Part shown: piece by piece, positions 19,901-60,756 of the stretch
How the letters are laid out: every line of letters begins with the position of its first letter
Position numbering within the stretch: position 1 is the first letter of the stretch
Source: Haplodiscus bocki
Taxonomy: Eukaryota
Assembly: GCA_965655095.1 (NCBI GenBank)
Contig: OZ296656.1
Span: 16,802,001-16,866,000 of the forward strand
DNA: 64,000 bases
Direction of reading: 5' to 3'
Translations under genes and position numbers: made by a program
Notes under the pieces: model-generated
Told to the model about the DNA's origin: nothing
Seen by the model: only the letters and a program-made list of their open reading frames with translations
Database searches by the model: none

Positions 19901-20098
19901 AGGATTCTGCCGAATTTGCAGTTTCCGCCACGACGGCACTCATGGCGGCCCCAGTTATCGCTGGGGGCGTAGCTGAGATCGGTATGTCAGTAAGAGGACT
20001 TAGCATAGTGGGTTCATGGCTTAGTTTTACGGGGAACGCCAGGCCCCAACCCTCCTCCTCCATATGAATGGCGCCGGGCTTGGGACCGGTATCTAGCG
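16930..20098 (-). mobile_element. RTE-clade non-LTR retrotransposon, near full length, recent insertion
   Basis: Perfect 14-bp TSD gagaaagctatcat (16916-16929 and 20099-20112). (TGA)n 3' tail at 16926-16944. APE endonuclease and RT in one frame. Visibly higher GC than the flanks. Confidence 0.96.
16947..20063 (-). pseudogene. RTE ORF: APE endonuclease plus reverse transcriptase, split by one in-frame TAA (18612-18614)
   Basis: Endonuclease motifs TWNV, LQETR, YAPT, NQIDFFL, SDH. RT motifs NYRGISLL, QAGFR, DFRAAFDSV, GVRQG, YADD, YLGS. The two ORFs are 78 nt apart in the same frame and read IM*RWAEHFVELLN. Confidence 0.95.
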
Positions 20099-20583
20099 GA
20101 GAAAGCTATCATGTTTTTATTACTGAAATGAGGTGAAAATTGAAAGTTTCTGGCATCCAAGTGGTACTTCTTCATTTCTTCTGTCCAAAATGCATACCTG
20201 ACAGACAGATATGAACTGTATGGATGAGGGGCCAAGTTTTCTTTCTTCGGCGTATAATGCATCAAAAGTTTCAAAGTAATTGCAACAGCCAAAAGGTTGC
20301 CCGAAATTGATGTTTTCAGTTGGAAAATTGAATCCAATATCGGAGATGGTTACTGTAGTTCGCGCATAGTGCAATTTGGCTGCTCAGTTGTTTGTCAGTT
20401 ATTAATTAAAAATTGTATCTGTTTTTTTGGGAAAAAATTAATTATTGAACCAATCGTATGCTCCCAGAAGGGATAAATAACCATGAAGCTGGTTCAATGG
20501 TCTCTTCAATTTAGAAACAGGTAATGCGAAATGTTTTCCGACAGTGGGAATGCGGAGACAATATGTGTTCTACCACAAATTAT

Positions 20584-22441
20584 TGTCGTTTTAGCCATAA
20601 CACTAAACAGTGCTAGTTCTAAATTTAGAATATGACATAATAGAAGTATTAAAAGTTACTTACCGTTTGAACGAATAGTTGTTGGAGAGCGGTAATAAAG
20701 TTGGAATTGCACATTTTGAAACTTCAAAATTTCGTTGACTTGCCCCAAAAAGAATAGCAACGACATTTTTCTATTTGCTGCCCGCCGTTCTCGGAAATTG
20801 ATTTTAATGCTTCACGAACGGCTCACCTTACTTCCTAAGAGTTGAATTTTTGAGTCTTTTCAGAGGATCACCATATTTGGTGCTCCTTGGCGTAAGGCTT
20901 ACCGTACTTTGTCATAACTTTAAAAGTACGAGAGCTCGGAAAAACTGAGCGGCCGGCCGCCAACAGTAGAATTCATAACTCACTTAATCGTCTGCCGTCA
21001 ACTACTATTGAAGAACACCTCAAATTTTGAACATCTCAACTCTCTCCTTGTGAAATCTCTAGAACCTTTGAAATTTGCAAACTTTTGCGAAAATCTCAAT
21101 TCTCCTAAATTTTGGAATATCCTCCCTATTCGGTTGCAAAATCGACTATCCAAAAACTATCAGAGAATCCCTTCTTTTGCAAAAGGGTATCGAAAAGACT
21201 TATAAACAGCACATCGATACGTATTGAAACTACCAAACAAACTGTTAGTATTTAAATAACTAACCCTGGTAGAGTACAACTCACCAGATCAATCTTAGTT
21301 AATTAAGATCGGGTCCCTTTGCAGAAACTGATTAAGAGTGCAACGTAAATTGCTCCGAACACAATCACTCTGAACAAGGGTCAATTGAAATTTCCCGAAA
21401 CTTAAGAGAAATTGCTCAGTGGTCCTGCCATTTAGTATTGTACCTTTTTAGGCTGCTTTCATCGAAGTGCAATGATGCTGAGTCTTAGATAAAATTATTT
21501 ACTAACCCGGTTTCGATCAGAATCAGCTTCTTTGATTATCCGATGGTAATGGCTGGAACATAAGAGAAATCACTCGGTTGATACGCTATAAAGCGAGTCA
21601 CCCAGTCTTAGTTACTAACCCAAACTTCTGATCGAACTGAGCGAGCGGTCAACAATATCCCTAAATTTTATTTTACGGGTTGACAACTATGAACTGGCCT
21701 CAGAGAAATCGCCAGGTTGTTTCGTTACGTGAATTACCTAATCATAGCTAAAATTGACTCAGGAGTTCACTTATAAAACAAACTACTGGAAAAAATGGAT
21801 GATTATATTCTCCGTTCTAGCGCAAACTTAAAACAGACCAAACCGATGGTGCTCAAAGGCATTTCAACTCATACAAGGTGAGAAAACATATGACTTAATT
21901 ACTGTTACCTGAGTTATTACTGTCATTTCATTATTTTTTTCGCGTCATTTAAAAGCGCGTGCAACAATATTATGTCTAAATTTTAGCTTAAAAATTTTAG
22001 ATTGATATTCTGGCCTAAACTTCTGAGTATTGTAAAACATTGATCAAATAACGTTGAATGGTAAACTGCTGACGTTCTTACTTTGGCTATTTTTGGAATA
22101 GAGTGAGTTCAAAACCAAACGTTTCTGCGCTTAAACAAGTACCGTCCCCCTGTAAACTTGCTATCAAGTTTAACATTACATTTATTATATTTGGAGCCAT
22201 AACTTGCATAGTTTGTATAACAGAACTGCTTGCGTTGAGAAAAATCATGACAAATCCTTTGACCACTCAATAACCATCCACTAAGTCCTTGCTCGCGAAT
22301 TCACGCACTACTTTGTTCGCGCGGGCCGGCAAGGCAACTTCAAGACTCAAGTTTGCTTAATCAGTAACGGCCGCACACCAAGAAAATGACAAATTTCTGT
22401 CAACATTAAATTTAGGCCAAAATCTAGTACCCCGCGCGACA
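20584..22441 (-). mobile_element. Long solo-LTR-like repeat, copy 1
   Basis: Reverse complement aligns along its length to 58912-60756. Ends TGTCG...CGACA. Flanks ttat/ctat may be a decayed 4-bp TSD. Confidence 0.7.
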
Positions 22442-26789: not shown

Positions 26790-27610
26790 GGTTCGACGCG
26801 ATTTCACCCCAAAATATCGAAACCCAAAATACACAAGCCCGAAATATTGAAACCCAGAAAACCCAATGTCCTAAAACACCCAAAGAAAAAATACCCCAGA
26901 TTGAAACAAAATAAATAGGACTTTTGACCACGGGGACAAAAATTTCAAAAATCAACTCAATTTCTCAAATTAACTTCAAAGATCAACTAAGCCTACCGAA
27001 AAAATGTCAAAAATCCTTGAAAAAACAACCCTTAAGTATTTTTACGCTTGAAAAACTTTAAGAAACCACCATCAATTTTTAAAACCCAGGCACTCTTATT
27101 ACTGCGTCCCTGGCCGTATTTTCAACCTTGAAACTCACTTAAAATAGGTTGAATTTTCTTTTATCTAGAAAAATCTGCAAACGTTTTACACAAAAAGTAT
27201 ATTTCATTGCACAAATAAGTACGTCCTGTTTAAGAGTAGAAGCCTATAAACGTTTACGGCTGAGCGTATATTTACTGTATAAAAAACTACATCCTGTTGA
27301 AAAATAGAAGCATATATATAAATACAACCTTTCTAATTTTGCCCATTTTAGCCTCGCGGAAATATCATCGACAAAAATTAAGGCCGCCCGCGGTCGAAGT
27401 GTGTTCGGGTTCACTTTTAACCAACATCCCCCAGTCTTTGACATATGCACCTGCCATAGGAGGTTAATCACCGAACTCAAAGTTCTTAAAACGGATGATC
27501 CCTGCTGTGAAGGTATAAGTGGAGCTCCCGATGGGCTTACACTTCCCGTAACTTGGTTGAAAAAGTGGGTTGGCAGGTTTCAAAAGTTTCATCTTCAATT
27601 GTAAACAAAA
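26790..27610 (+). repeat. Left TIR of element B, with terminal 15-bp tandem array (cccaaaatatcgaaa-like, ~26808-26900)
   Basis: Inverted match to 41255-42131, e.g. ttaaggccgcccgcgg / ccgcgggcggccttaa, ctcccgatgggctta / taagcccatcgggag, ttggttgaaaaagtggg / cccactttttcaaccaa. Confidence 0.85.
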
Positions 27611-41254: not shown

Positions 41255-42131
41255 ACTGTCGATAAAAGTTTTGTTACCTGCCAGCCCACTTTTTCAACCA
41301 ATTGACACAAAGTATAAGCCCATCGGGAGTCCGTCCAATTACACTTTTACAGCAGGGATTATCTTTTGTAAGAACTCTGAAATCGGTGATTAACATCCTA
41401 CAGCCGGCGCATAAGTAAAAATTGGGGGTGGTCGGTTTCAACTGAACCCCAACACGCTTCAGCCGCGGGCGGCCTTAACTTCTGCCGATGACGTTACCCT
41501 TAAGCTTTTGGAGGCAAAATTAGAACGGTTTTAAATGTATTAATGCTTTTACTCGTAAAGAGTATAAAGTTTTTCATGCATCGAAAGGACGCTCAGCAGT
41601 AAGCGTGTACATGCTTTAGCTCTGGACTAAGATGTAATTCGTTTGTGTTGTTAGAGTAGCCTTTCGAAAAAAACGTGTGTACATTGTTTTCAGGCAGATG
41701 AAAGTTTAACCTAAATTAGGTGATTTTGATGTTTGAAATTACGGCTAGGGTTGCCGTAATAACTATGGCTGGGTTTTATTTCTTATGGTGTTTTTTTCAA
41801 AAGTTTTATGGGGTAGTGATAGTTAAGGGTTCTGTTTTTATTGAATTTTCAGGCTTTCTCCATAAACCTAGTTGCTCTTTGGATTTATTTTGAGAAATTA
41901 AGTTGATTTTTGAAGGTTTTGGCGAATTTTAACTACTTAGTGGCGTCTTGAAACTTTTAGTTCAAGACGCTGTTTTTAATTCAATTTTTCATGTCTATTC
42001 ATTTCTTGTGTTTTTTTAGACTTTTTTTTGGCACTGGGTATTTTAGGCTTGGGAATTTTGGGACTTTGTTTCTTTCGGGTTTAATTTTTTTGAGCATAGT
42101 TATCTCGGATTGATTATTTTGTCTCGCCACC
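41255..42131 (-). repeat. Right TIR of element B, ending ttttgtctcgccacc
   Basis: Inverted match to 26790-27610. Degenerate 15-bp array at ~42030-42120. Confidence 0.85.
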
Positions 42132-42310
42132 GGTTGAAACTACAGTACCAATTGAGTGATTGACAGAATTCTAACAATAAAGGAAGCCAAAACATTTGAA
42201 TTGTAATTAAATACTAAATTATTATCATAATTTTGATGCAAAACTTTATTGCTTATTACAGAAACTTGCTTTTGCCATTATAATTACAGTCATCAAAACT
42301 ATTACCACAT

Positions 42311-43599
42311 TTTCAGACCGGCTTGTGCCGTTGAGGCACTAACAGCTGTCGGGGAAGCGGCCACTTCGTGACGTCTTTGCGCTTGTTCATTTCGAAGTTC
42401 TTTCATAAGCTCACAAAGATGAATCAGTTGTTGAGTGAGTTGGTCTGTTACAGCTTCTATTTGACGCGCAACGTCTTGAAATGTGACGGATTCACTCGGC
42501 GATGTCCGATTCTTGGGATCTGAGATCCCCCTAGGAGAATACTCTAGCAAACTTTCGGTCTTAGTGTTAAAATCGGTTTCGTCGAATTCAACCGCGACCG
42601 ATCGTTTCATATTTCAAGGAAAACAGGCTTCGATTAGATAAAAAAATTGATTTTTATAGAGTTAGAGTTAATGTCTTTAAAGAGAGATAGGATGTTGTTA
42701 GAGGTTTTTTCAGAGCAAGAATCAAAAAATTGTTGAGAAAGATGTGTTGCGAGACGTTCTATTTCTCTCTATCGCGGTATTTGTTGGTCTGCTTAAATCC
42801 GCTTTCTGCGTGCTCAATAACTTGCACTAATTGGTCACGTGGTTTCGAGTCTGTCACGTGATCGTGATTCGGGCCCGTGATTGGGTGCTGGTCTTCACAC
42901 TTAGTTTTTTCCAAAAGATTCTAACGATTTTTGCACTTCAATTTGAGCACAATATGTTCATGTCGTTCTTACTGCATCCTAATTAGTTAACTCTTATCAC
43001 GAAATCTCTACTTCCGTAATTGCATCGTTATCTGAATAAATACAATAAAACAGTTGATATCAATCGACTGAAATCAAAATGGCTAGAAACAGAAGAAAAT
43101 ACCATGTTGAGATATTTTTGTTCACGGGATTAATGAATGAGATTGGAAAAAGTTGCTAACACGAATTTCATAGTGCCTTAAGATGTCCTTTTCGAGTAAT
43201 AACTACAATTGGCGTAATTCCATTATCGCGAAAGTTACACCGTGACATAAACAAAGTAGTTTTCACTTGTTGCACTACTAGTAAGAGGTTGATGCAGGAC
43301 ACTGGACGAGAACCAATTGTCGTGATTTGGAACTTTTTTTCCCAAAAAACTACTGTAGGTGATTCACTAGCACTATCGTAGCACAGACTTCGTTATATAG
43401 GACATTAATCGCTTTCATACCAATGGGTAGGAAATAACAGGACATAGTAGCGTTTATACTGCTGTGTTGATATAGAGCTGCATACATTGCGTATGTTTTA
43501 ATTTCTAATGAATAACTTAAAGTCTCATACACATAACATAGGCTGGTTGCATATTCGTAATTATGTAGAGCTTTAATTTTCCTTCATGCTGGTATGACA
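42311..43599 (-). repeat. Gypsy 3' LTR (~1.29 kb)
   Basis: Aligns to 56411-57674. Starts TGTCAT on the minus strand. Confidence 0.92.
42790..42860 (-). promoter_or_regulatory. Putative LTR promoter: two CACGTG E-boxes, CCAAT box and TATA-like element
   Basis: CACGTG at 42836 and 42855 (56912 and 56931 in the 5' LTR), then ccaattag and tttaagca downstream on minus. Conserved in both LTRs and upstream of the LTR-encoded ATG. Confidence 0.45.
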
Positions 43600-43612
43600 T
43601 TCACCTTCTACA
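43600..43612 (-). other. Polypurine tract
   Basis: Minus-strand gtagaaggtgaa immediately precedes TGTCAT of the 3' LTR. Confidence 0.65.
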
Positions 43613-44651
43613 GGTTGAAACAAGAAGTGCAGGCCAATTGTGGAAGAAGGTACCACTTCTCTGGAAGCGGCATGGCCTACGTTAATTGGGGCAAAACTGG
43701 TCCTTCGTTGGTTTTTTTACAGGGTTTCGAAAAAGATTTGGCAGTCCTTCGCTGGGTGTGGTTAAATGACTGTTAATCACAATTTTCCCACATCTCCGCC
43801 ACTGCGGCTTCATCAGGCTCCGTCTTTGGTGAGTTCAAATATTTGATTGACAACCGGAGGTGCCATATTGTCTGTCCTGCAGTGCTATTCTATATTCGGT
43901 AATGTGGTCATCACTTTTCCGACAGGAAATCCTCCATTTTATCGGCAAATCAAATCCTTTCAATTTTTTTCTATCTCAGGGCGCATCATTATTTTTCAAC
44001 TTTTCTTGGCTGTGATGGGATAGTTCCCCGTATCCGAAGGCAGTTTGGCACCGGCTTAAGTAAACTTCATTGGACGCTTGCATATCGTGAACTTGGGAAA
44101 TTGATTTGGATGCAGCCACGTCATGTTTTTGTGCGCTTTATTTACTTGCTTAAAACAAAGTCGAGTCTTTTGATCTTCTCAACTCTCGGCAGTTGATTCG
44201 TGAGTTCACAGTTATTGCGTTGTAGTCCCTCAGTTTTGGTACTTTGCTCTCCACGCCAGCGCGGCACCTTCGATTTCTGTTTGGCGGCAGTGTGGTTTTT
44301 GTCGCGCCATCACAGCGATCTAATTGAATTACTATCGTCTGTCTTTGGGCAAAATTTATCGTTTTCCGCTTACTCTCAAGTAATGAAAATTCGAGAGCTA
44401 TGCGCCAGCTTTTTCCAATCTCATTATTTGTTTAGTTTCTTCAACTGTGTCAGAAGAAAACACTGTGACGGCATTTTTTCCTTTGAATCGGGTGTGCGGG
44501 TCGTGATTGATGACTTATGGCCTGATCAGTCCTTTTGGTCTACGCGTGTCCTGAAACCTTTTGGTTTTCGTTACTCGTACTTTTTGTATTCCAGGGAATT
44601 GTCGTTGACGTTTGTATCAATGTGTGTTTTCAGAATTTTGTTCTGCGAATC

Positions 44652-45611
44652 ATGTTCCGTGGAGATTCTGCTGTTACTCCCTCGGATCCACAAATCCACC
44701 AGTTGATGGAGGATTTTGAGCGAGAGGTGCTCAAGCAGTCACAGTCTTTAATCACGGAGGATTTGCGGAGGACGTTGCTGTATCATTTTGACCCCGAAAA
44801 GACTGATGCTGTTGGACCGAGTGCGCTGCGTGTTGAGCGTGTTCTAGAAGGCGTGTACGTTTGTGACAGTGAGGACGATTCCGTCATGGCTCCCGAAATG
44901 GTGGAAGCCTTGAAACAGCCGCCTTTGTGTTCGTTTTCTTTCCTTATTTTGTAGTGTCATTTCTGTCACGTGCTCTGTGTCCGGTATGTGTCGTGCATTT
45001 CCCTTGTGTCTGTGATTCATTTTCTTCTATTGTTGAAAAGTAATGTGGAGACTGAGGACATCATCAAACACTTTCGGGCTTTGGATCCATTTGAGCCTTG
45101 CTGAGTGGACCCGTTTGGGATATCCAGACAATTGGCGGTAGATCTAAAACGCAGCCTGAGGAGGCTTTTCGGTAAGTTTTAATCTTCTTTCATTCTGTGT
45201 TACCCGTGTGTTTGTGTGCGTGAGAGGGAGCTGTCAATTTTTTTCTCGTCTTGTGTTGTCATCTCTTCCCTCATCTTGTGTGTGTTTTCTTCCAACTCAG
45301 TTCGTCTTCCGTGGTTTCCGTCATCGTATGTTGTGCTTTTATTCCGTCCAGATGGGGTGTTCCAGTTGACGGAATGTCCGTATCAACTCTGGAGACACTG
45401 ATTCAGTCCTGTGTCTTTGACGGGTGGAGCGACGTTGTCACTCATCAGCAGGTGTCAGCTTCTGTTATGCTTTTCAAGTTTGGTGTCTTATCGATTCCAG
45501 TTCCCTGGTTGTCCGTGGAAGTTGCCCTACCAGGAGGGGGCAGAAATTGTCAGCTGCAGAGTCCTCGTGGTCCCTGTGCGGCTAAAGGAAGCAACGTTTG
45601 TAAGAAACTAG
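44652..45611 (+). pseudogene. Antisense three-exon gene of unknown function inside the Gypsy element
   Basis: Exons 44652-44926, 45041-45171 and 45352-45611 join in frame across GT-AG introns (second donor G|gtaagt, acceptor ccag|). Two internal TGA codons. AATAAA at 45680. Confidence 0.6.
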
Positions 45612-45739
45612 ACAAATCATGTTAAGAATGACGAGCGAGGTTAAATTGTGTTACGCTGAAATCTTGACCAACCTAAAAGAATAAAAATAGGGATCTTGAG
45701 CGTTGAAGCTCAGTGAAGGTGTGAGTCTTGTGGTAGCTA

Positions 45740-46275
45740 AAACAAAACATGCTTTGTAAGGAGGTGACATGATTGATTTATGTGACTTTTCTGGTGAAGA
45801 TCCTGCAGCCTCAGTACTTTATCAGGGGCTTGGTGAGCTTGTGGATTGGCTTGCCTTGGAACGAAGCTTGTCAAGGACGGCTTTCCACAGTCTCTCTTTT
45901 GCAAGACGTACCTGAAATTGGTAGCCCGGTGTTGATGAGCTTACATAAACACCGGAAGTCCACTGAGCTGCAGTTTTGTGAGATAAGTTACCGGTTGCAG
46001 TATGACAAGCCACTAGTGAATAAGAACTGCAAGGAGGCGTCAAAGAAACAACGCGAACGAAAGAAGGCTCCGGTGGTCGGCTTGGCTCTTTTGCATCCAG
46101 AATCCAAATTCGCGTTGGTTGTGGCGCAGGTGCTAGACGCCACGAATGAATTGGAGGAAGTAAGTGAAGTGCACTTAGAACGTCGCATGCAGGCGTTAGA
46201 GCTGACAATTCTCGCATGTCAAGTTAATAAATCTTTAGTGTGTATTAATGTGGTGGAAACGTTACATGAGTACAT
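45740..46275 (-). pseudogene. Gypsy accessory cassette 4 (Cys-containing, unknown)
   Basis: Pyrimidine tract and cag acceptor (46388), ATG 46275. ORFs 46219..46446 and 45988..46188 share a frame. Confidence 0.35.
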
Positions 46276-46329
46276 GGTGTGGTTACGTGTTTGCGTTGAT
46301 GTGTTAGTGTTGATTTGACAGTTGAAAAG

Positions 46330-46436
46330 TGATGAAGTGATGATTGTAAAACGTTTAACGTGAGGATAGAGAGGTGATGATGAGGTGCTGATTGTAAAAC
46401 GTTTAACGTGAGGATAGAGAGAGAGAGAGAGAGAGA
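46330..46436. repeat. 48-bp tandem duplication followed by (GA)n
   Basis: tgatga(a/g)gtg(a/c)tgattgtaaaacgtttaacgtgaggatagagag at 46330 and 46378. Confidence 0.9.
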
Positions 46437-46699
46437 CAAAAAACAACGAGAAATTTGGAAAACATAAAAAAAGAAAATGAGAGGTTCGTTTGACGAAGGT
46501 GGGGAGTGGATGTTGTGTCTTTTGGGGTATAGAATTGTTTCGCTGCGTTTTGTTTTAGGGTTTGCTGCTGTATGGCTTGCTTCGGTTGGTGGTGGAGCGT
46601 ATGAAAAACTACCTGTCAGGGACGTTTCCATTTGCTCTCCAAGTGGAATGATCAGGATGCCAGGCGCATGTGGTGCTGGCATGTATTGAGGAGGAAGAC

Positions 46700-47368
46700 A
46701 TCCCGGACTGTGGTCCTTGGCAGTGTCGTTGTTGAGTCAGGATGGTATTAGCATGTGGTGGGTCTGCTTGCTTGTTGGCATTCTTGTGTGCCAGTTGTTA
46801 AAAGTCCAAAAGAGCTGGTGGTAGATGAAGTGGGCTAGCTTTCTGCTCAGTTGACCAGTTCAATTGAGCAAGGCAATACCATGGTCGTGACTCGAGTAGG
46901 TTCAGATTGGCTGCACAATCTCATCTCGGGTGTCAGTCACAGAAAATTCAACGGGGTTGAGTCGTACAGTGTGGCCGACTTTCTATGGCTGAAGAAGGAA
47001 GAATCTCGCACAGCTTCAATGATGATGAAGTTACCAGGATTCAAGGCGGTCAATATGGTTCTGTAATAATATTGGTGATTCGGGTAGTTACCAAAAACGC
47101 AAGTCAAATACATAGAGAGACGAAACGGGGTGGGGAGTGGTCGGTGTACAGACAATTTGACAGGGGATTCCGTGCGTGTAAAAATTGTTATTTAATGTAT
47201 TGTTTGCTTTCCGGACTTTCTGGCTCGACGATTCCTTTTCCGTGGGTTGGAGGCATCTTCATGGAGGTGGTGGATTACTGGGAATCGTTGGTGGAGTTTC
47301 TGGTCGAGAGCAGAGTAACGGTGAATGCGGAGACGTTCACGGGTGTGAGTGTCAACTTTGAACTCCAT
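46700..47368 (-). pseudogene. Gypsy accessory cassette 3 (unknown)
   Basis: Long pyrimidine tract ending tcctcacttcag (acceptor 47418), ATG 47368 (MEFKVDTHTRERLRIHRY...). ORFs 47192..47680 and 46937..47155 share a frame. Confidence 0.45.
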
Positions 47369-47659
47369 GATGACCGACGTTGAGAGCTCGATTTGCGTTG
47401 ATGGCGTTGCAGGAGAACTGAAGTGAGGATAAAGGTGTAAAAGAACGAAGTTTTTATCAAACAAAAAGAGAAAAAAAGACGAGAAGAAACAGACAAAGGG
47501 AAACAATACAGAAAAAGGGTTAACGTGTAGTGTAGATTGGGTTTTCATGTGGTTTGTTGATAAAGAAATTCTGACTGTGCTGAGAATCTTAGGAGTTAAT
47601 GTTTTGAGCGGGAGAGGGTTAGTGTGCTGCGCGCAGTTTGGGTTGAACTTTTGAAGTTT

Positions 47660-48930
47660 GGTTCTTGTTTCAGTTGCCAAAAATTGTCAAAAGATGTTCA
47701 GTAAGACTGCGAACGATCAGTACTCATTGATGGAGTTTGAGCCGGCTGGATTGGTCCATACAATGATGGTCGTCGATCCTGCTTGTATTCCCCGTCGTTT
47801 CAACTTGGGCGGTCTTTTGCGGCCATGGAAGTTCCCACTGAAGGATGTGTTAGAATGTGGGCTGGCTCGTAATTTGAGTCAGTACTTCGGGTTCAGTGGC
47901 AGTGTGTTGATGCAGCATTTCTACAACATTGCCTGTTATTGTATCCGGTGTATTGTGATTGGAGTCGGGAATGTAAGGACGGAGCGAGCTAAAAAGTGGC
48001 CAAATCTGGAGCTTTTATGTCCTGCTCTTGTTCGGCACGCGAATCCTGATTGGTTGGTCGATATGGTTCTCCACTTTGGGATCGCGTTGGCTGCGGAGGC
48101 GTCTTGACTGACTTGGAATTTAGGAATTTGGTTTATCGGCACTTGAAATGCAGCGAGCAGCTGAAACACCATTGTTGGACTGACGTGTCGGTGCCAATCG
48201 TGAACAGTGTCCTGCGGTTCTGTTTCGGGTTACCCAGTTGGAACAATTTCCCGGTGCTGCAAAAAGCGGTACAGATTATGTTGGTTTCATCGACCAGTTG
48301 CTGTTATAGCCAGGACTTTCTTGACGAAAACTCCAGCGCTAGTTCATAAAACGGGGTGGTGGGCGCTGTCAAATCCCTACGGAGCTGTTTTGGTCATCAT
48401 GGCGTGTCATCAAGTTACCTGTTAGACTGTGGTAAAATAGCAGGTTGCAAAGAATCCCTGTCCAGGTATACACGCCTTGATGATCCGTTGATGACTTCAC
48501 GGTGGCGGGCGTCTCTCAGTGCGAAGTCGGGGGTCTTTGGTGGCCTGGTGTTGTATACTTGAGTGCGGATGAGCATATCTCGAAATGTTTGCGAGTGTAC
48601 AGCACCAAACAGTCGAAACGGAGTGGAGAACCGTGCAATCTGCGGGTATCACCTGCTAGCAAGAAGGTAAAGAAGACAAGGAAGGCAACTCTTCGCGAGA
48701 CTGATGCTGTGGCGAGTTCGTCAGTAGCATCACCTTGTCCTCAAAGCAGTGTTTTAATGGCTGTCGACAGGTTTAGTGAAGACTCTTTGGTTGTTTTGCG
48801 GTGGAAACAAAAATATTCTAACATGGCCTGTGACGTCAAAGACTTATGAACGTGTGAACTTCAGCAGAAACTAATTAACTTGAGACTTTTGATTGCATTG
48901 TTTTTCGCTCTGTTTGCCATTACCATTCAT
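47660..48930 (-). pseudogene. Gypsy accessory cassette 2 (unknown)
   Basis: Pyrimidine tract ending tctttttcag (acceptor 48975), ATG 48930. Stop-interrupted protein-like text, e.g. FSTPFRLFGAVHSQTFRDMLIRTQVYN. Confidence 0.38.
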
Positions 48931-49336
48931 TCTTTTGTAGTCAGTGAAGTGTTTGCTGCAGTTGCTAGTGACTGCTGAAAAAGAAAAAAAACCAGTGAAA
49001 AGGAAGAAAAACGGAAAAAGAATCATGGTAAACCCAAGTGAATGCTTCACTAGGGGCGCTTTGGGAGAAAAAGAACTTATGTGAAAACAGAGCAAGAGGG
49101 CAAAAAATGGGCGACTGAACTCTTTTTTTCTCATGACGATTTCTTCTTCTTTTGTGGGTGTTATTCGAGGTTGACAGAAACTGTTAGTTTCTAGGGTGGT
49201 AAGTTACATATTAACAGAAATATATACATGACTTCTTGAGGTGGGTCTTTGCTAGACAGGAGGTGAAACTTCGGTTTCTGGGGTTGACCAATTGGTACTT
49301 CAGTGCTCTGTAAAAGTAAAAACCTTATAATTGACG

Positions 49337-50133
49337 TTATGCAGCTTTTCCTTCGTTTCTTAAGAGACAAAGTATAGAGAGTCTTGCACGCTTCGATGTT
49401 GGGTGGATGGTAGTAATATGGTAGTGTGTAGGACAACTCGGGGGTGGTAGTCCAATGTTTTTGCAGTTTTTTTGGGATTTACGTGCGAGGTTGCTTTTTG
49501 ATGAGGTTTTTTGTGGACTGTTTACAGGTAGAGAGCTCAGCAACTGAGCTTTTCGAGTTTTCTTAGCCTGAGAGCTAAGATGTTTTGTAGGCTGACTTGA
49601 GACTGTTTTGTGCCTTGTGATTGCAATATTGTAGTTTGTTGGTAGGAGCGTGCTAATAAAACTGTCCAATGCAGTGTTATGTGCGTGTGGGAGTGGTAGA
49701 GTACACATTTGATGACTGGGAGCCTAGTGACTGCTGTTTAATTTGTCAGTTGGATGTGTAGCAGACCTAGATTAGACCTGAGTGAAAATTTGATATGCTT
49801 GATCTCGCGAGCGGTACCATCAGCATGTTTGTGTTGGTGGTGTATAGCAAACTTAGTTTGGTCTGCTCTGATGGGAAGGGAGCAGTTTATGATGAATATG
49901 GTTAAGTAGCGTGATTTCATGTAGTTGTGGTTGGTTTGTGAAGAATGTTTCTAAGTTCACTCCTATGTGAAAGTGTAATTGCCCAGTGCTGGAATGGTGG
50001 ATGTAATGTGGGCACAACGAAGTAAGTCAGTGTAAAGCGTCTTGCAAGACTAAATTATGTGTTTCAAGCGTTGTGTGATGGTGTCTTTTTGAACTGATTT
50101 TTGATCGATGCGAACGCACGCTTGGTAGTGCAT
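49337..50133 (-). pseudogene. Gypsy accessory cassette 1 (unknown; not recognisably env)
   Basis: cctcctgatttcag|ATG at 50133, in frame with ORF 49738..49920. Confidence 0.38.
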
Positions 50134-50230
50134 CTGAAATCAGGAGGAATGAAGACTTCGCGTAATGCGGGTCTCAAGCATCAACATCGTCACAGTTGAC
50201 TCTCTAGCGTTAACTTGTGTGTCATGATGC

Positions 50231-53200
50231 TTAGTGGTTCAAACTGAGTAAGAACTTTGCGATTGTTGGTTGATTGCTTAGTTCAAGCATGAGCTTGTCC
50301 TGGCAGATCCTAGCTTTGGGATTCTCCCGTAATTTGTACCGTGTTGAGTGTGTGAGAGCATGGCCTTGCTCTTGTGATTCGTGATCACCCTTGTCGTGTA
50401 AAGGTGTTGAAGCTGGCTGAGGAGGTACATTGACCGGTTTATGACTGACTGGGTGTTTTTCACATTCGAGTTTTGGTGAGTCGTACTTTGGGGATGATAG
50501 GTCATCGTGAGGTGTAGCTACAGGTGCGTCCTCTTGGAGTATGGGAGGAATTTCGAACCGAGTCATATGAGGTGTGGGTATCGTGGTTTCAGGTTTGGGT
50601 AATAATGTGGTACGCAGGCTTCCGGTTGTAGCTTTATCACGAGTTCTTGAGGGTTTTCCGTCTGGTGACGGATTTTCTTTTCTGATTTTTGATCCTGACA
50701 CCGTGTGGTTGTGAGATGAAAAAAGAGCACATTCATTAATCGTATCCAGGTGTTGGTAAAATTGGTGTTCATCTACTTGAATGTCAAGGACAATCTCGTG
50801 TAATATGAATCTGCGGAGTCGCATGCGATGCACGCGTTGCGTTTTGTGGGTACCAGGTTTGCAATTGACGTAAACGGGTTGTGTGATAATTTCGTGACTT
50901 TGTATGAACCGTTTCAGAGGAGTATTTTGAACTGTGTGTTGTCTGACTGTGTGTAGTACTTAGGGTTCGAGAAAAAAACGTAGTTGCTGACTTTCAACGG
51001 TTGTACAGACGCTTTTCTTTTGTGGTAGTTCTTGTACTTGTGGAAAGCTTTGAAGATGTTGGCGGTTTTGTCTTTGTACTTTTGGTTGATTTCATCAATC
51101 AGAGTGTGGAGTTGGACTTTGGTACAATTCCTTTGCCTTGGATTGCTTAATTTGAGATCCAAAGCGTTGTAAGGAATGAGTCCATGAGAATTGTCAGTGA
51201 AGTACGTTTCAGTGTTATGTGGTACGTTGTGTTGTGTGCCATGATAACTAGATTGAAGTACCAGCCAAGTGAGGTTTGTCTGCAGCTACACTAATCTTCA
51301 GAATTGTTTGAGCTTTTGATGGATCCATTCGATCATCCCAGTGGTTTGTGCTTGTTTGATTGTAGCATGATTGGTCTTACTGCCACATCGACTCATGAGT
51401 TCAGTCAGTACTTGAGGAGCAATTGCCGCTCGTTTGTCAAACGGTCTATGTCTCGGAACATATGCATGTTGAGTTGAAATCTGTGGGAGTGCATGAACAA
51501 CTCAACTGGCGCTCACTTGTCGGAGAGGACCTCCAAAGATGTATCGTTGAAAAACGTCGCAAGCGGTCAGGATCTGCGTAGAACCGTTTGAAGCTGGTAA
51601 TTCTCCGACAAGGTCAACCTCCATTACGTCTTCCGGTCCAACGCCCGGATTATAGATTCGCTCTAGTGGAGGTTGGAGTTGCGTGTTAGAGCAACGCGTG
51701 GCTCATATGCGCATCTGACACCTTTCAATGTAGTGCTGAACTTTACGAGTGAGGTCGAGAACGTAGTACCTAGATTTTAGGACTCTAAACGTTTCAGATG
51801 CACCAGGGTTTCCCTGTATGGTGTTCTCATGCAGTGTCCTGAATATGTCATTTTATTATGTCATCAGGGACTCCTGTTTGCTTGCTCGTGGGTTTACCGG
51901 TGTGGTCGACGTACTGTCGGTACAGGAAGTTGTTGATTACTTGTAATCGATTTTGGTTCCTCACACGTTTTTTAAAGAACTGACTTTCAAAGTTGGGCAG
52001 TGAAGGAGGTTGCTCTCCGTCACGAAGGACACGGATTACTCCTTGAACGTTAACGTCGTTAAATTGTGCCGTTAAAGTTTCATGGTCCGCTATGGGAGTT
52101 AACGGGTTCATTGCGGAGTGGTGTTGTGAACGCTTCGGGACAAACTGTGTGTAGTATGCAACGTCAGAGGAAGTGTGCTCATCGTGTTGGGTAATGTGAC
52201 CGCGCATGAGTTTCAGCCGGGGCTTGCAGTCATCCTCTGATTCACCATCACGTCACCTAACCATCATCAGTAACGCACGGACATCCGCCGCGGTTGTGGG
52301 GGGGCGGAGTGGCTGCACTATCGGTTAACAGTGATGGATCGGCATGGAAGTCTTTTTCGTCATCGGCTTGTTTGATTGAGTCAGTAAGTTTCAGTTGATT
52401 CCTGTCCACTGGTGCTACCTTTAAACGAGAAAGGTAGTCAGCGGCAGGATTCTTGATACCTGGTACTTGCGCGAGTTTTAAATTGAACTGAGGGGCTGAG
52501 TCAAAGAAAGTCCTTAATTTCGGAACAAAATGTTCCTGGAGAAAACTAGTTGAAGCCTTATTATCCCTCATGACTGTGGTAGGTTATTTTACGCCCCAGA
52601 AGACGTGTCCAAACTTGTCAAGTGCAAAGTGCATGGCTAAAAATTCCTTAGCATGAACCGTTAAAGTCATTTGTCCTCCAGTCAACTGATGGGACCTAAA
52701 AACGTTAAGAGCATAGGTTTTCGATTACGTTCTGTTCCTGTTTGCCAGTCTTCAATCAACAGCACATAGCCCGCAGCGTGTTCGCTCGCGTCGCTCAAAA
52801 TTACCAATTGGTGGTCGGGTATTGGGAGCCGTAACGAAAATTTGGCTGCCTTGGCGAGAATTTTGTTTATGTCGAAACTCGGTTTTTTGGTGGACTTGAG
52901 TTTGAGATTTTGTGTCTTTTTGTAGCAACTGGTACAGCGAGAAGACATTCTCGGCTATGTTTGGGATAAATTGCTTGTAAAAGTGAACGAACCTTCTGGA
53001 GTGACTTCACTGAAGTCAAGAGTTAAAGGTTTGTTTAGAAAAGGTCTATTTTTTCGAGAATGGGGTCTGTACCTTGTTTGCTAAAGGATTTGCCTAAAAA
53101 TTTGATCTGACCTTGGCCAAACGCACCTTTACCCGTAAGCAGTTTAAGAACTGCAAGTTCTATTCGCTGAAACACTAATTCAATGTTTTGGAGAAGTTCG

Positions 53201-54800
53201 TCTGCAAAATGCACTGCTTTGCCGATAGCAACAACGTATTGAACGCATCTATCAGTTTTTATCACAGGATCAAGGTATTCTGGGACAAAACTTTTGAGCG
53301 CTGAGAGTGACCTATTCAAGGCTTGAGCAAAACCTCGTCACGCGAAAGTACGTGCGCCGAAGTTAATTGACAGTAGTTGAGTCGATTGCTCATCTGCCTT
53401 TTGCAGGCACTGGCAGGCTTGGGAACAACCAAGCCTAGAAAAGTACCTTTTCACGCCATATTCTGAGCTGCATCAGCAGTCTTTGTGATTGGGGGGTTGT
53501 GCTCGTTGTGATCGTGCTTGATGAGGTGGTTGATTTGTCTCAGGTCCCCTAAAATTAGGTTCCCATTATGTTTACAGTGGGCAAAAGTGGGCAATGAGTA
53601 CTTGTTAAAAAGCAGTTTGGTAATTAAATCGTATTCTTGCTGTGACGCGAGTTAAACAAGCATCTCATCTTTGAGGTTCGTTGACGTTGTTGGGTTTTGC
53701 GCGTAGACGGGCTCATAATGTTTGGGAGTTAACTTATTTATATTTTCGTTGTCAATCCTTATTAGGTCTATGTCAAGTCTAGATTTAATCCCCATTATCA
53801 AGTCTCTGTCTAGCGAAAATCTTGTTATACTATATCAGTACCGTTCTACCATAGCTTGATCTTCGAAAGTCAGTTAACAGTTTTTGGAGCTGAATTGATC
53901 CAGAAAAGCCCTGCGCATTCGGTTTAGTCTTTCGAGATCACGGAGTCGCACGAGTTCATTAGAAATTCGCCTTTCAACGGGGAGGAGCTTCGTGGGATCC
54001 TCGCACGTCCCAGGAATAGGGTACCATTGTTTGTCGGACGGTGAATTGGGAGTCTGGATGAACTGATTGATAACGTTGTTGGCTTCCTCGAGGTGTGAGG
54101 AGACAAGGGTGAGTTGTTCCAACGACATTGTTTGCACGTGATTTGCTCGTCCGAGTGTGAGTGTTTTGAATTTAGCGAAAACGGTTCCGTGGTTTATGCT
54201 GAACGAGTGGGCATTCGGGTTCGTAATTTGAATGGTTGTCCGTCTGTCTTGGAGTTGTTTTATCGCTGGAGTCACTATGAGGTCAGATTTTCGGGTGAAA
54301 GCGGAAGTAGCTTCAGTGATGTCGAAAGAAATGTCAATTGCAATTGCTGCAATAGTTGGTGCCATATCTTGTTAGAACGGGCCTACAACATTTTTTTGGA
54401 GGGTTTTCAGTTCAAAAGTTCCGCATCGGAATTTCCGATGTTGTGACCAAAGCTGTAATGACAGGTCCGAGAAATGAACAACGTTGTTCTTGAGTTCGAG
54501 CATCACTGATAGAAAAAGACATGCCGATGTGAAAGTTGTCCTTGGTTGGCAGTACAATGAAGATCTCCCCAAATTTTCTCCTGCAAGAAAAAAATCGAAG
54601 TTGGATTGTTTTCGGATGGGCACAATGTTGCCGTTGGCTATCTGAATTTTGTATACAAGTGAGGGTGGTTCTTCTAGCAGCGCTGAGATTTCGGCAGTGA
54701 GTTTGCTGCGTAGCTCATTTTCGGACATAGCGCGTTGTATGGTGCCAGTGCCAGGAAGGGCATGACTTTGGTAATCACGAACTTGCAAGGTATGTACAGC
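50231..54800 (-). pseudogene. pol: Gypsy pol: aspartic protease, RT, RNase H, integrase (decayed)
   Basis: PR ALPGTGTIQRAMSE (decayed DTG, ~54750). RT FAQALNRSLSA and RCVQYVVAIG (decayed YVDD, ~53235). RH LVILSDASEHAAGYVLL and VPGIKNPAADYLSRL. IN NPGASETF, EVDLVGELPASNG..ILTACDVF and VHRMRLR. Confidence 0.9.
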
Positions 54801-55199
54801 ATGCGGTCTTTTTTGTTCAGTCTGTGAGTTGCAGACAAGGGGCGGACTCCTACTTGTGGTCTCTTGGTGCGGCAATTTTGTCTTGTCAGGTCGTCTATCA
54901 CTTCGGGTGACACTTTTTATATCTAGTGGTGTGGTACCGTCAGATTGTGTGCTTTTTCAGGATTCATCGGTAGAGGGGCTTTGCCTGTTAGTGGCCGCAC
55001 TGTCGGCCAGGCGTGTGCTCGGGATCAGGTGATAGTTGTTGTCGGTGGTCTGAGTCAAGACGTATTTTTTAAGGGAGGAGTTGCACACCCTAGGAGGCTG
55101 CCGGCATCCGTTGGGTTCGCTGTCTTTGGTAGTTTTAGTCGTTTTTTTTTAGTTTTTCTAACACATTCATGTGATTTAGAGAAGATAAAAGGCGCACTT

Positions 55200-56700
55200 T
55201 TGTCATTTTGCTGTGGGTGACATGGCATGATCAGTTTCGAGACTGTTCGTCTTCGCTCCCCGATAAGTTGGAGAAATCAGGTTGCTTGGTGACTTCGTTC
55301 AGTGGGGCCCGTTTAGGAGATGATTTGAATTTCCTACAGAATTTCTTGTTTTTGTGCGTATTCTGCTTGTCATACGGGACATTTCGAAATGCAGTTGTGT
55401 CTCTCGCTCTGTGTCTACTGTCTGGTGCTGAGTGTATCCACTTGAATTGCGCACCATTTTTGAATTGTACTTCGGTCACTCTTGCTGTGGTTACTCTTGT
55501 GGTTGTCAATTGGCCTCGTCACCTTTCTTGCTACGGCTTTTCATTTTTTATGTCCCCTTTTCCCACAGTAATGGCACTCTCCGCTGAAATGAGGACTATC
55601 ATTTGTGAAAGTGGTGTTGTGAAAGTCTTGTGGTGGTCTGTTGTAGCGGTACGTGATATCGTTTAATGGCATTGCCTGGTTTGGTTGAGGGATCACTTGT
55701 TGGTATTGGAATCGTCGTAGTGCAAGAACTTTGATCTACCCGACTGATGCATCAACTTTCCCTGCAGTGGAGAGTTCGTGCTGAATTTTTATCGGCAATT
55801 TGCCGAACAGAAGTATTTCAACAAATTTGGAGATCTTGTCGCCAAATGCTTGATTGGCTGTCTTTTTTAGCGTCTTCAGAAATTCTGTAAAAGTTTCCTT
55901 GATGGTTGCATAGATGAGTTGGTTGCCTATGTAATTGATTACTTCTATGAAATTTTTGGGAGCATTTTTTTGCTGAATTTGTAGGAGGAAGTCTCTAAGG
56001 GTGGCTTCTGAGTTGACTCTCAGTGTTTGCCAAAACTCAATGGCTTCATCTCTCAGGAGGTTTGGGAAGTCGTGTAGTTTGTTTCCTTCTTTGATCCTGT
56101 GTTAACGGGGTTGCATGTGGTTGAGGAGTAAATGTTCAAACTCATTGAATTTGTCTTTGGACCCTCGGAATTTGGGTACTTGAGTGTGGAACACTTTGTT
56201 CGGTGACATCACGTTGGAGGATTGCGGGGATTCTGTTGGTTGCCCTTGCTATCTGATTCATCTGGGATGAGGTCTATTCTACGGGTCGTTCGTCTTCATC
56301 GTCAAAGCTGAATCCTCGGTGATGTGGTGGCAATTCTGGAGAAGTGAGTCGGTCGGGTAGTGCGAGTGTGCTGAGTGGCGTGAGGGCGGGGTTTGCTGTT
56401 CCTGACACCTTTTCAGACCGTCTTGTGCTGCCCTTCAACGTGAGGAGACGGTTTTTTCGTGACATCTGTGCGCTTGTTCACCTCGAAGCTTTTCCATTAG
56501 CTCACAGAGATGAGCCAACTGTCAAGTGATTGGGTCTGTTACAAGTTAATTTGACGCCCAACGTCTTTACACGTGACGGATTCACTCGGTGATGTCTCAT
56601 TTTCGGGATCTGAGATTCTCGGAGTATATTCTAGCAAAAGTTCGGTGTGAGTGTTACAATCCGTTTCCTCAATTTCTACCGCGACCAATCGTTTCTTATT
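55200..56700 (-). pseudogene. gag: Gypsy gag (begins inside the 5' LTR; CCHC knuckle)
   Basis: VPKFRGSKDKFNEFEHLLLNH (~56120-56180), LLRDEAIEFWQTL, zinc knuckle ECHYCGKRGHK (~55548-55582). Confidence 0.8.
56392..56410 (-). other. Primer-binding site, tRNA-Leu-like (degenerate)
   Basis: Minus-strand aGGTGTCAGGAac directly after the 5' LTR resembles TGGTGTCAG(G/A)A, complementary to the tRNA-Leu 3' end. Confidence 0.6.
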
Positions 56701-57674
56701 TCCAGGAAAACAGGCTTTGATTATATAATAAAATCGAATTTAGTAGAGTTAGAGCTAATGTCTGTAATGAGAGAGAAGATATTTTCAGAGATAATTTCAG
56801 CACGAAAATCAGAAAAATGTCTTGTGAGATGTTCTATTTCTCTCTATCTGCGGTTTTTGTTGGTTTGCTTAAACTCACCTTTTGCGTGCCCAATAAATTG
56901 CACTAATTGGTCACGTGGTTTTGAGTCTGTCACGTGATCGTGATTCGGGCCCGTGACTGGCTGCTGGTCTTCACACTTAGTTCTTTTCAAAAGATTCTGA
57001 CAATAAGTGGACCTCAATTTCAGCCTAATATGTTCATGTCGTTCCTACTGCATCATAATTGCTCAACTCCTATCACGAAAACTATACTTCCGTAATTGCA
57101 TTGTTATCTGAGTAAATACAACAAAATGGTTGACATCAATTGACTCAAATCAAAATGGCTAGAAACAGAAAAGTATACCGTGTTGAGATATTTTTGTTCA
57201 CGGGATTAATGAATGAGTTTAGAAAAAGTTGCTAACACAAAATTCACACTGCCCTATGATGATATCTCCGAATACTATTTATCACAAGCGTGATGCTGAT
57301 TTCATGAATTTTACACCTTGATATAAACAAATTAGTTTTCACTCATTGCACTGTTAGTAAGAGATTGATGCAGGAAACACTGGACGAGTTCAAATTATCG
57401 TGATTTGGAAGATTTTCACCAAAACCACTGCACGCGATTCTCTAGCACTATCGTAGCACAGATTTCGTTATATAAGACATGAATCGCTTTCACACCAATG
57501 GGTAGGAAGTAATAAGTCATAGTAGCGTTCATATCGGTGTGTTGTTATGGAGCTGCATAAATTGCTTATGTATTAGTTTGTAATGAATAAATTGAAAATT
57601 CTTATAGATAACATAGGCTAGTTTCATATTCGTTTTTATGTTGAGTTTATATCTTCCTTCTTGCTGGCATGACA
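56411..57674 (-). repeat. Gypsy 5' LTR (~1.26 kb)
   Basis: Aligns to 42311-43599 with many substitutions. Confidence 0.92.
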
Positions 57675-57949
57675 CAGATCTAGGATCAATTTTTCAGACA
57701 CACACCTATTTGAAATTGAATGTTTTATAGAGCACCAAAAACATTGAAGCTTTTGTTGGGAGAGTCACATTTTTGACTCACAGCGCCAAAAATTTTGTGA
57801 AGTGAATAACAGTTTTGTCTCACAATGCCGAAAGTTTTGTGAGGTTCTTTTCGGTGGGATCCAATTTTTTTGAGCTTTGCTACTGCTTTTCTGTTCAAGG
57901 TGTTTTTGTGCATATTTTGACTTGTTGTATATGTTTTTGACACGACTAA

Positions 57950-58911: not shown

Positions 58912-60756
58912 TGTCGCGAGGGTGGTAGAATATTTTGGTTCAAATTTCTTTTGAAAATACTTGTCACTTTCTTGGCGTGCGGCCGTTACTGAATAGACAA
59001 CCTTAAGTCTCAAAGTTGCCTTGCCGGCCCGCGTGAACAAAGTAGAGCGTGAATTCGCTGGCATGGACTTAGTGAATAGCTATGGAGTGGCCTAAAACTT
59101 TGTTAAGATTTTATTCAAAGCAAGCATTTCTATCATATAAACCGAGAAAGTTATGGCTTCAAACCTAATACTTGTAATGTCAGACGTGGTTGAGAGTTAA
59201 GAGAGGGAACGGTACTAATTTAGGCACATAAGATTTGGTTCAAATTTCGCTCTATTCCAATAATACTCAAAGTTAGCAACTTTACCACTTTGGAGCTGTT
59301 TGAACTAGGTTATAAACACCCAATAATTTTAATCCAGAATGACAATTCAAAATCTTTCAACTATATTATAGGGAAAATTTTGTTGCACGCGCTTCTATTT
59401 GTCGCGAAAGTAAAATACTAAATTAACGGTAGCTCCAGTAACCAGAATTATTACCTTTTCTAATCTTGAAAGAGATAAGTTGCCACTGAGCACCATCGAT
59501 TTGCTTTAGGTCTGTTCTAGAACGAAGAGTAAATTCACCCGTCTTTTCTAGTAGTTTATTTTAAAAGTGTTCCTCTAAGTCAGTTTTAGCCAAGACTAAG
59601 TCATTCGCGTAACAAATCAACCTAGCGATTTCTCTTGGGCCAGTACGTAGTTGTCAACCCGTAGAAAAATATCTCGGGATTTTGTTGACCGCTGGCTCAG
59701 TTCCGATCAGAAGTTTGGATTATAAACTCAGACGACATAACTCGCTTTATGGCGTAGCGACCGTGCGATTTCTCCTAGGTTCAGGCAATTACCATTGGAT
59801 ATCAAATGAACCTGATTCTGATTGAAACTGGGTTAGTAAGTAATTTTATTTAAGACAGCATCATTTCACTTCAATGGAGGAAGCCAATAAAGGCACAACC
59901 CCAAAAGGGAAGGACCACTGAGCGATTTCTCTTAGGTATCGGGAGGTTTTATTGAGCTCCTGTTCAGAGCAATTTCCGCGGCAACTCCTATTCAGAGTAT
60001 CTGCTGAGGGACCCGATCCTAATTAACTAAGTTTTCTGGCGAGATGTACTCTACCAAGGTTAGTCATTTTAAATACCAACAATTTATTTGGTTTATTTTA
60101 AATGGAGTTGCTGTTGATGGCTCTTGTTGGTTTCTCTTCACAAAAGCATTATTTTCTTGATATTCTTCGAAAGTTGAGAATAGTTGGGTCAGTCTCGGAA
60201 TAAGAATGGTCAAAATTTGAAGATATTTGAAGTTTTTGTTAAGTTTTCAATTTAGAGAGTTTTTAGAATTTCAGGGAAAGAGAGTTGAAATTTTTGTAGT
60301 TTTCGATTTCACAGTTGGTAGTTGTCAGTAGGCGATCAGAAAAGTTATGATCTTTCATTTTGGCGCCCGGCGCTCAATGTTTCCGTGCTCTCGTACTTTT
60401 TATGACCAACGACGGGAAGCCACCCGCCAAGGAGTACCGAAAATGGTGATCCTCCAAAAGGAGTCAAAAATTGAACTCTTAGGAAGCAAGGTGTGCCGTT
60501 CGTTAAGCAATAAAATCAACCTCCGAGAACGGGGGGGGGGGGGGGTAACGAGTAGAAAAGCTTCGTTGATATCCGTCTGAAAAAACCAACGAAATTTTGA
60601 AATTTCAAAAAATGCAATTCCAACTTTGTTACCGCTCTCCAACAACTATCCCTTCAAACCGTAAGGTGCTATTTTTAATTCTATTATGTCATTTCTAAAC
60701 TTAGAATTAGCACTCTTTAGCGTTATGGCTCGTTTAGCGTTATGTCTAACGCGACA
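58912..60756 (+). mobile_element. Long solo-LTR-like repeat, copy 2
   Basis: Begins TGTCGCG and ends CGCGACA. Inverted homolog of 20584-22441. Confidence 0.7.

Follow-up and report, generated by a model that had tools for sequence, protein, structure and literature searches.

The antisense gene and its exons

The window analysed here is a 64,000-nucleotide (nt) stretch of contig OZ296656.1 (positions 16,802,001 to 16,866,000 of the forward strand), and the part of it flagged for study, 44380..45690, lies, judged by sequence, inside an old, dead Gypsy long terminal repeat (LTR) retrotransposon that occupies the minus strand and has no env. An earlier note on the window had placed there a two-intron gene for a protein of ~220 amino acids (aa), antisense to the genes of the retrotransposon. 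We aligned 39 copies of the element family, removed 4 near-duplicates and compared the remaining 35. As read from these copies, the antisense intron-bearing gene is real and about five times larger than the note had it, and the flagged stretch is its decayed first fifth.

The gene would begin with a likely non-coding leader exon (43600..43828, plus strand), in which codon periodicity was absent and whose donor at 43829 has GT in 26/30 copies and GTRAG in 19/30; we infer that this donor pairs with the acceptor at 44632-33. Coding exon 1 (44634..44928, on the plus strand like all the exons after it) has its ATG at 44652, 277 coding nt and a phase-1 donor at 44929, so that intron 1 covers 44929-45039 in the family. 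Coding exon 2 (45040..45171) has 132 nt, and in the window copy it has lost the family acceptor and gained a stop at 45102 (a stop present in 2/32 copies). Coding exon 3 (45343..45599) has 258 nt in family columns and an alternative acceptor 9 nt downstream. Exons 4 to 7 were read from 19 longer copies, namely the window and 18 of the 20 that were fetched, which show downstream plus-strand open frames of 235, 209, 154 and 414 codons. Exon 4 (45795..46300; 626 nt in family columns, open over 235 codons in the family frame) carries a BED-like C-x2-C...H-x5-H finger and a helical part, and ~120 nt of it are deleted at 46176 in the window copy; exon 5 (46559..47048, 489 nt) encodes a predicted RNase-H-like alpha/beta core; exon 6 (47214..47422) has 211 nt; and exon 7 (47674..48849; 1,223 nt in family columns up to the stop, open over 414 codons in the family frame, stop codon in 10/14 copies) encodes a helical domain and a basic tail resembling a nuclear localisation signal.

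The downstream splice sites were found in 22/28 copies at 45600, 19/26 at 45793, 16/20 at 46301, 12/16 at 46557, 12/17 at 47049, 14/16 at 47212 and 11/16 at 47423 (acceptor and donor of exon 6), and 10/14 at 47672. Motif counts of 60-80% are at the level of the neutral background in these dead copies, where a column has a mean share of ~0.8, therefore the sites belonged to the source element, and selection after insertion is not indicated. The exon lengths (277, 132, 258, 626, 489, 211 and 1223 nt) add up to 1,072 codons between 44652 and 48849, and all six junction phases fit, two of the splice sites having been picked with reading frames in view. We consider it highly probable that the seven exons are spliced into one long product, with a predicted length of ~1,070 residues. 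In four runs, all of them contigs of one study, no joint fell at a predicted intron among 15 of 92 joints, which is uninformative on splicing.

The motifs named in the earlier note exist in the window (ATG at 44652, ttttcag ending at 44633, G|GTAAGT at 45172, CCAG ending at 45351, AATAAA at 45680), and splicing the window as the note proposed reproduced its quoted peptides. Common to the family are the ATG (23/33 copies), the upstream acceptor (23/33) and the donor at 45172 (GT in 22/30). The donor of intron 1 had been set at 44927, where the full motif occurs in 0/34 copies, the real donor being 44929 (22/34); its acceptor had been set at 45039-40 (2/32), the real one being 45038-39 (20/32; frame unchanged, difference of 3 nt). 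For intron 2 the donor stood, and the proposed acceptor at 45350 (19/31) competes with an in-frame alternative at 45341 (21/31). The exon-3 peptide DGVFQLTECPYQLW belongs to a frame shut by family-shared stops and is an artefact, because the window copy misses one base near 45357. Codons 113 and 153 of the spliced window product are stops, and this copy is therefore incapable of making the ~220-aa protein. The AATAAA at 45680, taken for the poly(A) signal that ends the gene, is private to the window copy (1/27), and the gene does not stop at 45690, since donor 45600 (GT in 22/28) and acceptor 45793 (19/26) join four more exons in phase. The region beyond, believed to be a sense-strand cassette on which the gene converged, is coded on the same plus strand and is likely the remainder of the same gene. 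It is damage to the window copy that produced the intron-1 ends, the exon-3 frame, the ~220-aa length and the poly(A) signal of the note, all of them artefacts. What was right in the note is the nature of the gene: element-encoded, intron-bearing and antisense to gag-pol, it is common to the family, and its exons recur in sister families. Most splice sites and the frame are shared across copies, with codon periodicity following the splice phases, and such family-wide sharing rules out a host fragment captured in this copy only.

Selection on the antisense frame

Variants present in at least 1/4 of copies were counted as shared, and such sharing means that they arose while the lineage lived. 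Over the 228 codons of exons 1-3, shared variants numbered 67 at third positions versus 25 and 25 at the other two, an excess reached by 0/20,000 permutations (29 versus 12 and 11 in exon 1; 17 versus 4 and 3 in exon 2). The introns were without a third-position excess (9/5/9, 12/7/9 and 35/35/38), and the phase of the periodicity moves at every intron as the splice model predicts. Exons 4-7 likewise have a third-position excess in each frame. Over all seven exons, 332/347 shared third-position variants are silent on the plus frame and 293/347 on the overlapping minus frame; the silent share is 26/27 in exon 6 and 130/134 in exon 7. In exons 1-3, all three minus frames are shut by shared stops. 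This pile-up at third positions indicates that the frame was under purifying selection, and we regard it as almost certain that the antisense frame is a real coding gene.

The host element and its copies

The element is bounded by a 3' LTR (42311..43599, minus strand) and a 5' LTR (56410..57674, minus strand), a direct repeat 82.1% identical with a Kimura two-parameter distance of 0.206. Next to the 5' LTR follows, on the minus strand, the primer-binding-site-like GGTGTCAGG, and the 5-bp flanks (42306-42310 and 57675-57679) agree at 4/5 positions as a target-site duplication. The 3' LTR is the likely source of the antisense promoter. Decayed gag-pol in the Ty3/Gypsy order reverse transcriptase (RT), RNase H, integrase occupies 50230..56400 (minus strand) and was recognised from frame-broken translations; a Pfam scan of these window fragments gave 0 matches, while in an intact relative Pfam scored RVT_1, RT_RNaseH and rve in this order, which agrees with gag followed by PR-RT-RNase H-integrase. 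Between the antisense gene and pol lies a non-coding spacer of ~1.3 kb (48850..50230), over most of which codon periodicity is unclear. Shared stops close all six of its frames, as they do over 48850-50400, so a sense env open reading frame (ORF) between pol and the 3' LTR, as Errantivirus-like elements have it, is absent; a candidate env-like region at 48900-50250 was dropped on the same ground. Plus-strand purine-rich tracts were seen at 46400-46480, 47430-47530 and 48980-49020 (introns 4 and 6 and the spacer), introns 1 and 2 being T-rich instead; in the genomic RNA these tracts read as U-rich, and they may serve a role on the sense strand.

A genome search with the flagged stretch returned at least 41 DNA matches, those other than the window itself being 65-79% identical, and exon 1 gave at least 48 protein matches; decayed copies of the window family number at least 40. 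The tree of the 35 copies is star-like (terminal branches sum to 6.3, internal ones to 0.43), therefore the family is long dead and every copy decayed independently. Exons 1-3 are free of stops and frameshifts in 3/27 well-covered copies. At G000:C5:21200963-21210691 (L004, L005, L007), the 3' part of the element with exons 1-3 stands in three tandem copies at ~2.8 kb spacing.

Sister families and young elements

Exon 4 has at least 150 matching places in the genome. From these, 20 more distant loci were chosen for distance and few stops (one turned out to belong to the window family), and among them exon 5 was also present in 11, exon 7 in 13 and pol on the opposite strand in 14; the antisense gene is kept across families with only 30-45% protein likeness. 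When exons 1-3 were sought in 56 sister loci, the 3' motif of exon 1 was found again in 3 and exon 2 in 2, and exon 3 had no sister-family match. Phase-1 GTGAGT donors are visible in L118 and L121, in the latter after the exon-2 homologue.

A distant database relative led to young Gypsy elements with long open antisense first exons. Their 625-740-aa open frames had been taken for a donor DNA transposon, an idea that was dropped because they are the first exons of the antisense gene in these elements. The LTRs are 98.9, 99.5 and 99.7% identical in 3/3 elements tested, gag is 617-630 codons long, pol reaches 1,553 codons, and the antisense gene is intact, with a layout like that of the window family. 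Three introns were placed in 9/10 copies, a count that is not independent since the anchors required GT and AG. The middle exon has 486 nt in 7/9 copies (489 in the window family) and is free of stops in 8/9, and the N-terminal part and the finger lie within one continuous exon. Comparison of two young subfamilies showed 87-90% identity in exons and 72-78% in introns, with a ratio of nonsynonymous to synonymous substitution rates (dN/dS) of 0.07-0.19 for the folded exons and 0.37 for the N-terminal part. By hhalign, the young finger exon is related to exon 4 (probability 90, expectation value E=1.4e-6; reversed control E=0.41); profile comparison of young exons with window exons 5, 7 and 1 gave no significant relation.

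The young relatives leave no room for env between pol and the antisense gene. In an integrase tree, all 29 gene-bearing elements fall on one side of a 100/100 branch versus 7 env-type elements, with no further outgroup, and the integrases of the window and of the intact relative group with the gene-bearing elements. Of 16 loci taken from the best RNase H matches, 0/16 had the antisense gene and 12/16 had an intact sense frame of 778-856 codons. This frame follows pol in other young Gypsy families (L254-L269; e.g. L256:3213-6955, L261:3558-7372, L262:2946-6958) and matched Baculo_F at E=2.8e-5, just under the cut-off, in 1/3 tested; after it comes a frame of 321-428 codons that has a coiled coil and, over the cut-off in 3/3 tested, a DnaJ domain. 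An env-like gene together with a J-domain gene in one LTR element looks unusual.

Beyond the genome, relatives occur in five contigs of one metagenome set, and one contig has the same exon series; the host of these contigs may be the same or a close one. Two database proteins have 28-49% identity to their best genome places, which hints at other hosts. The viral contigs contained no relative of the young last exon.

The predicted protein

The finger pattern C-x2-C...H-x4-5-H is present, and its best matches, all below cut-off, were zf-BED (E=0.09), the Spin-doc finger (E=0.015) and the BED finger of ZBED2 in the PDB (E=0.47). The model of exon 5 reads helix-b1-b2-b3-helix-b4; Foldseek matched it mostly to RNase-H-like folds, with the hAT transposase Hermes at rank 23. 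In the Atlas, which lists language-model neighbours and whose scores here, all under 0.9, are leads only, the named clusters nearest to relatives of exons 4 and 7 were FAM200-ZBED5, DUF4371, ZBED1 RNase-like and DUF659 (0.77-0.85). Exon 7 has a motif-like W-x2-FP-x-L-x-K, and the domain order of finger, core, helical part and W-x2-FP-x-L-x-K is that of the hAT proteins examined here. These language-model neighbours and the motif order suggest a hAT-transposase origin, and we hold it fairly probable that the protein derives from a DNA transposase.

Further searches and comparisons gave the following results. Every alignment test against hATs was non-significant, including those against hATs from the same genome. 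Pfam on the exon alignments gave 0 matches over cut-off, and PDB sequence profiles gave nothing below E=0.3. The PF05699 dimerisation domain had no Pfam or profile match in exon 7, the model of which is unusable (predicted local distance difference test score 42). Read by eye in an assumed register, the D-D-E triad is not conserved, strand 1 being without a terminal Asp and the strand-4 acid varying between families; an E-R-x-F-S motif was likewise not seen by eye in exon 7, whereas the genome's own hATs show triad motifs and E-R-x-F-S. Terminal inverted repeats were seen neither around the 10 young loci nor at this place in the window. A word-index protein search with exon 1, exon 3 and the exon-4 alignment found nothing among longer proteins, which is weak evidence, and HMMER with the exon-4 profile found 95 matches of 58-423 aa, the 10 looked up being unnamed ENA predictions.

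The same genome holds an intact hAT transposase family of 624 codons (L148 and ~20 near-identical places), apparently recently active, and further intact hAT frames of 591-652 codons.

Other features of the window

A LINE-type ORF2 lies at 16947-20105 (minus strand), in which an endonuclease (PF03372) and the RT after it (E=9e-38) share one frame, interrupted by a single stop at ~18610. Two inverted repeat pairs, 72-74% identical (20593-22441 with 58912-60730, and 26937-27593 with 41261-41921), are both likely old copies of other dispersed elements.

Discussion

On balance we favour the reading that the flagged stretch is the decayed 5' fifth of a seven-exon antisense gene of an env-less Gypsy lineage, whose ~1,070-residue product would be a disarmed hAT-type transposase acting as a nuclear, DNA-binding regulator of the LTR. 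Hermes, ZBED1, ZBED5/FAM200 and DUF4371, as hAT transposases and their domesticated forms, have the order of BED-like finger, alpha/beta core, helical region and W-x2-FP-x-L-x-K that is predicted here; unlike them, the gene here sits in a retrotransposon and not between terminal inverted repeats, its DDE residues are not conserved, and it does not align significantly. An unlikely alternative is that the gene is real and not transposase-derived, that is, a host or viral zinc-finger gene captured with its introns. The non-significant hAT alignments, the Atlas scores under 0.9 and the commonness of the RNase-H-like beta-sheet motif are what one would then expect, but two separate exons lead to hAT clusters in the Atlas, and no host gene outside elements was met among the inspected loci, of which 6/20 and 4/10 had no nearby pol match.

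The main rival to an LTR-regulator role is that the same spliced gene tethers integration: its protein would serve integration or particle transport, by holding the integrase complex to chromatin or carrying it into the nucleus. A DNA-binding-type finger and a basic tail fit this equally, and comparable accessory roles have been proposed for plant antisense ORFs in the available text of PMC7264820. It nevertheless seems rather improbable, as a promoter of its own would separate expression from gag-pol and be better suited to a trans-acting regulator. We rate still lower the reading in which three exons form a gene of their own, encoding ~230 aa, and the frames downstream belong to separate genes. 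Retention of intron 3 would indeed reach an in-frame stop at 45623 (23/28 copies), by which a ~230-aa short form may arise, and exon 3 lacks a sister-family match; but a phase-matched donor (22/28) stands 23 nt before that stop, a phase-matched acceptor (19/26) opens exon 4, exons 4-7 start at acceptors with no conserved start codon noticed at their 5' ends, the poly(A) signal is private (1/27), and the young lineage joins the N-terminal part and the finger in one exon. A passive nested DNA-transposon insertion, or a shadow frame of sense-strand genes, can be practically dismissed: hAT-like features and a minus frame with the same third positions, open for 190 codons over exon 4, speak for it, but it is already contradicted by the codon-position excess, by dN/dS of 0.07-0.37 between young subfamilies and by phase-fitting exons with silent variants, and the gene is retained across families 30-45% alike in protein, its catalytic residues are not conserved and shared stops shut the minus frames elsewhere.

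For the hAT-derived regulator that we favour, the mechanism would run as follows. The step read from the sequence is an antisense frame between pol and the 3' LTR that was under purifying selection and is broken by phase-fitting GT-AG gaps. The RNA that is packaged and reverse-transcribed is of the other strand than the antisense gene, which is why antisense introns survive reverse transcription and would be kept through every round of copying. Transcription would start from a promoter within the 3' LTR or next to it and run through the non-coding leader exon, the BED-like finger would bind DNA, the RNase-H-like core would be a scaffold without cutting activity, and the basic tail would bring the protein into the nucleus. 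Least certain is the last step: the protein would act on the LTR of its own element and either activate it or free it from silencing, in the manner of TnpA and VANC of plants. The regulator or silencing-suppressor role that the earlier note put forward is plausible as a putative function compatible with the zinc finger, and a role in regulating the element's LTR or opposing silencing is, by analogy, possible rather than probable. With similar reserve we propose the wider history, in which a Gypsy ancestor took in a whole intron-bearing hAT transposase backwards and disarmed it, and a broad env-less lineage keeps it, intact to this day in families that moved recently, as its own transcription or anti-silencing factor, an alternative to the cargo of env plus DnaJ that other Gypsy families of this genome carry.

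The HBZ gene of human T-cell leukaemia virus type 1 (HTLV-1) is spliced and encodes a small bZIP protein. HBZ is likewise an antisense gene driven from the 3' LTR, according to the available text of PMC7264820 and PMC11963269, but the protein here bears no likeness to it and the element here is without env. Closest among known systems are the plant Retand and Grande antisense ORFs. The same two texts, in the parts available, place antisense ORFs behind pol and before the 3' LTR in the plant elements Retand, Grande and RIRE2 as well as in Boty of fungi; those of the plant Tat clade (Retand, maize Grande gene23, rice RIRE2; TRP28/PF04195) are likewise antisense in this position, kept in most copies, borne by long env-less elements and proposed to be nuclear or DNA-binding regulators. 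They are described as ORFs, the word intron occurring 0 times in the available text of PMC11963269, whereas the gene here has six coding introns. They also differ from the protein here in its length of ~1,070 residues, its BED-like finger and the RNase-H-like core predicted for it, and in its host, likely an animal; TRP28 (PF04195) had 0 matches in any Pfam scan made. In the part consulted of bioRxiv 10.64898/2026.08.24.746577, Spm TnpA and VANC are transposase-derived DNA-binding proteins without cutting, kept for self-control; these belong to plant DNA transposons, whereas here a class I element would borrow a class II protein, the likeness drawn being one of role. In the literature covered, including the available text of PMC7264820, PMC11963269, PMC12477816 and PMC13547354, no LTR element was found described with an antisense gene that has several introns and a BED finger, a coverage that leaves aside Repbase, subscription journals and supplements.

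In the available text of PMC7264820, the origin and function of such ORFs in plants are called unknown, and a look at spliced antisense transcripts is called for; to this open question the gene here adds a likely animal example with readable anatomy. Annotation by ORFs alone misses such genes, which have short exons on the opposite strand. The several introns mark the capture as having happened at the DNA level or in antisense, purifying selection spans deep family splits, and the intact young copies allow tests of expression and binding. If the hAT origin is true, one transposon class would have been domesticated by another.
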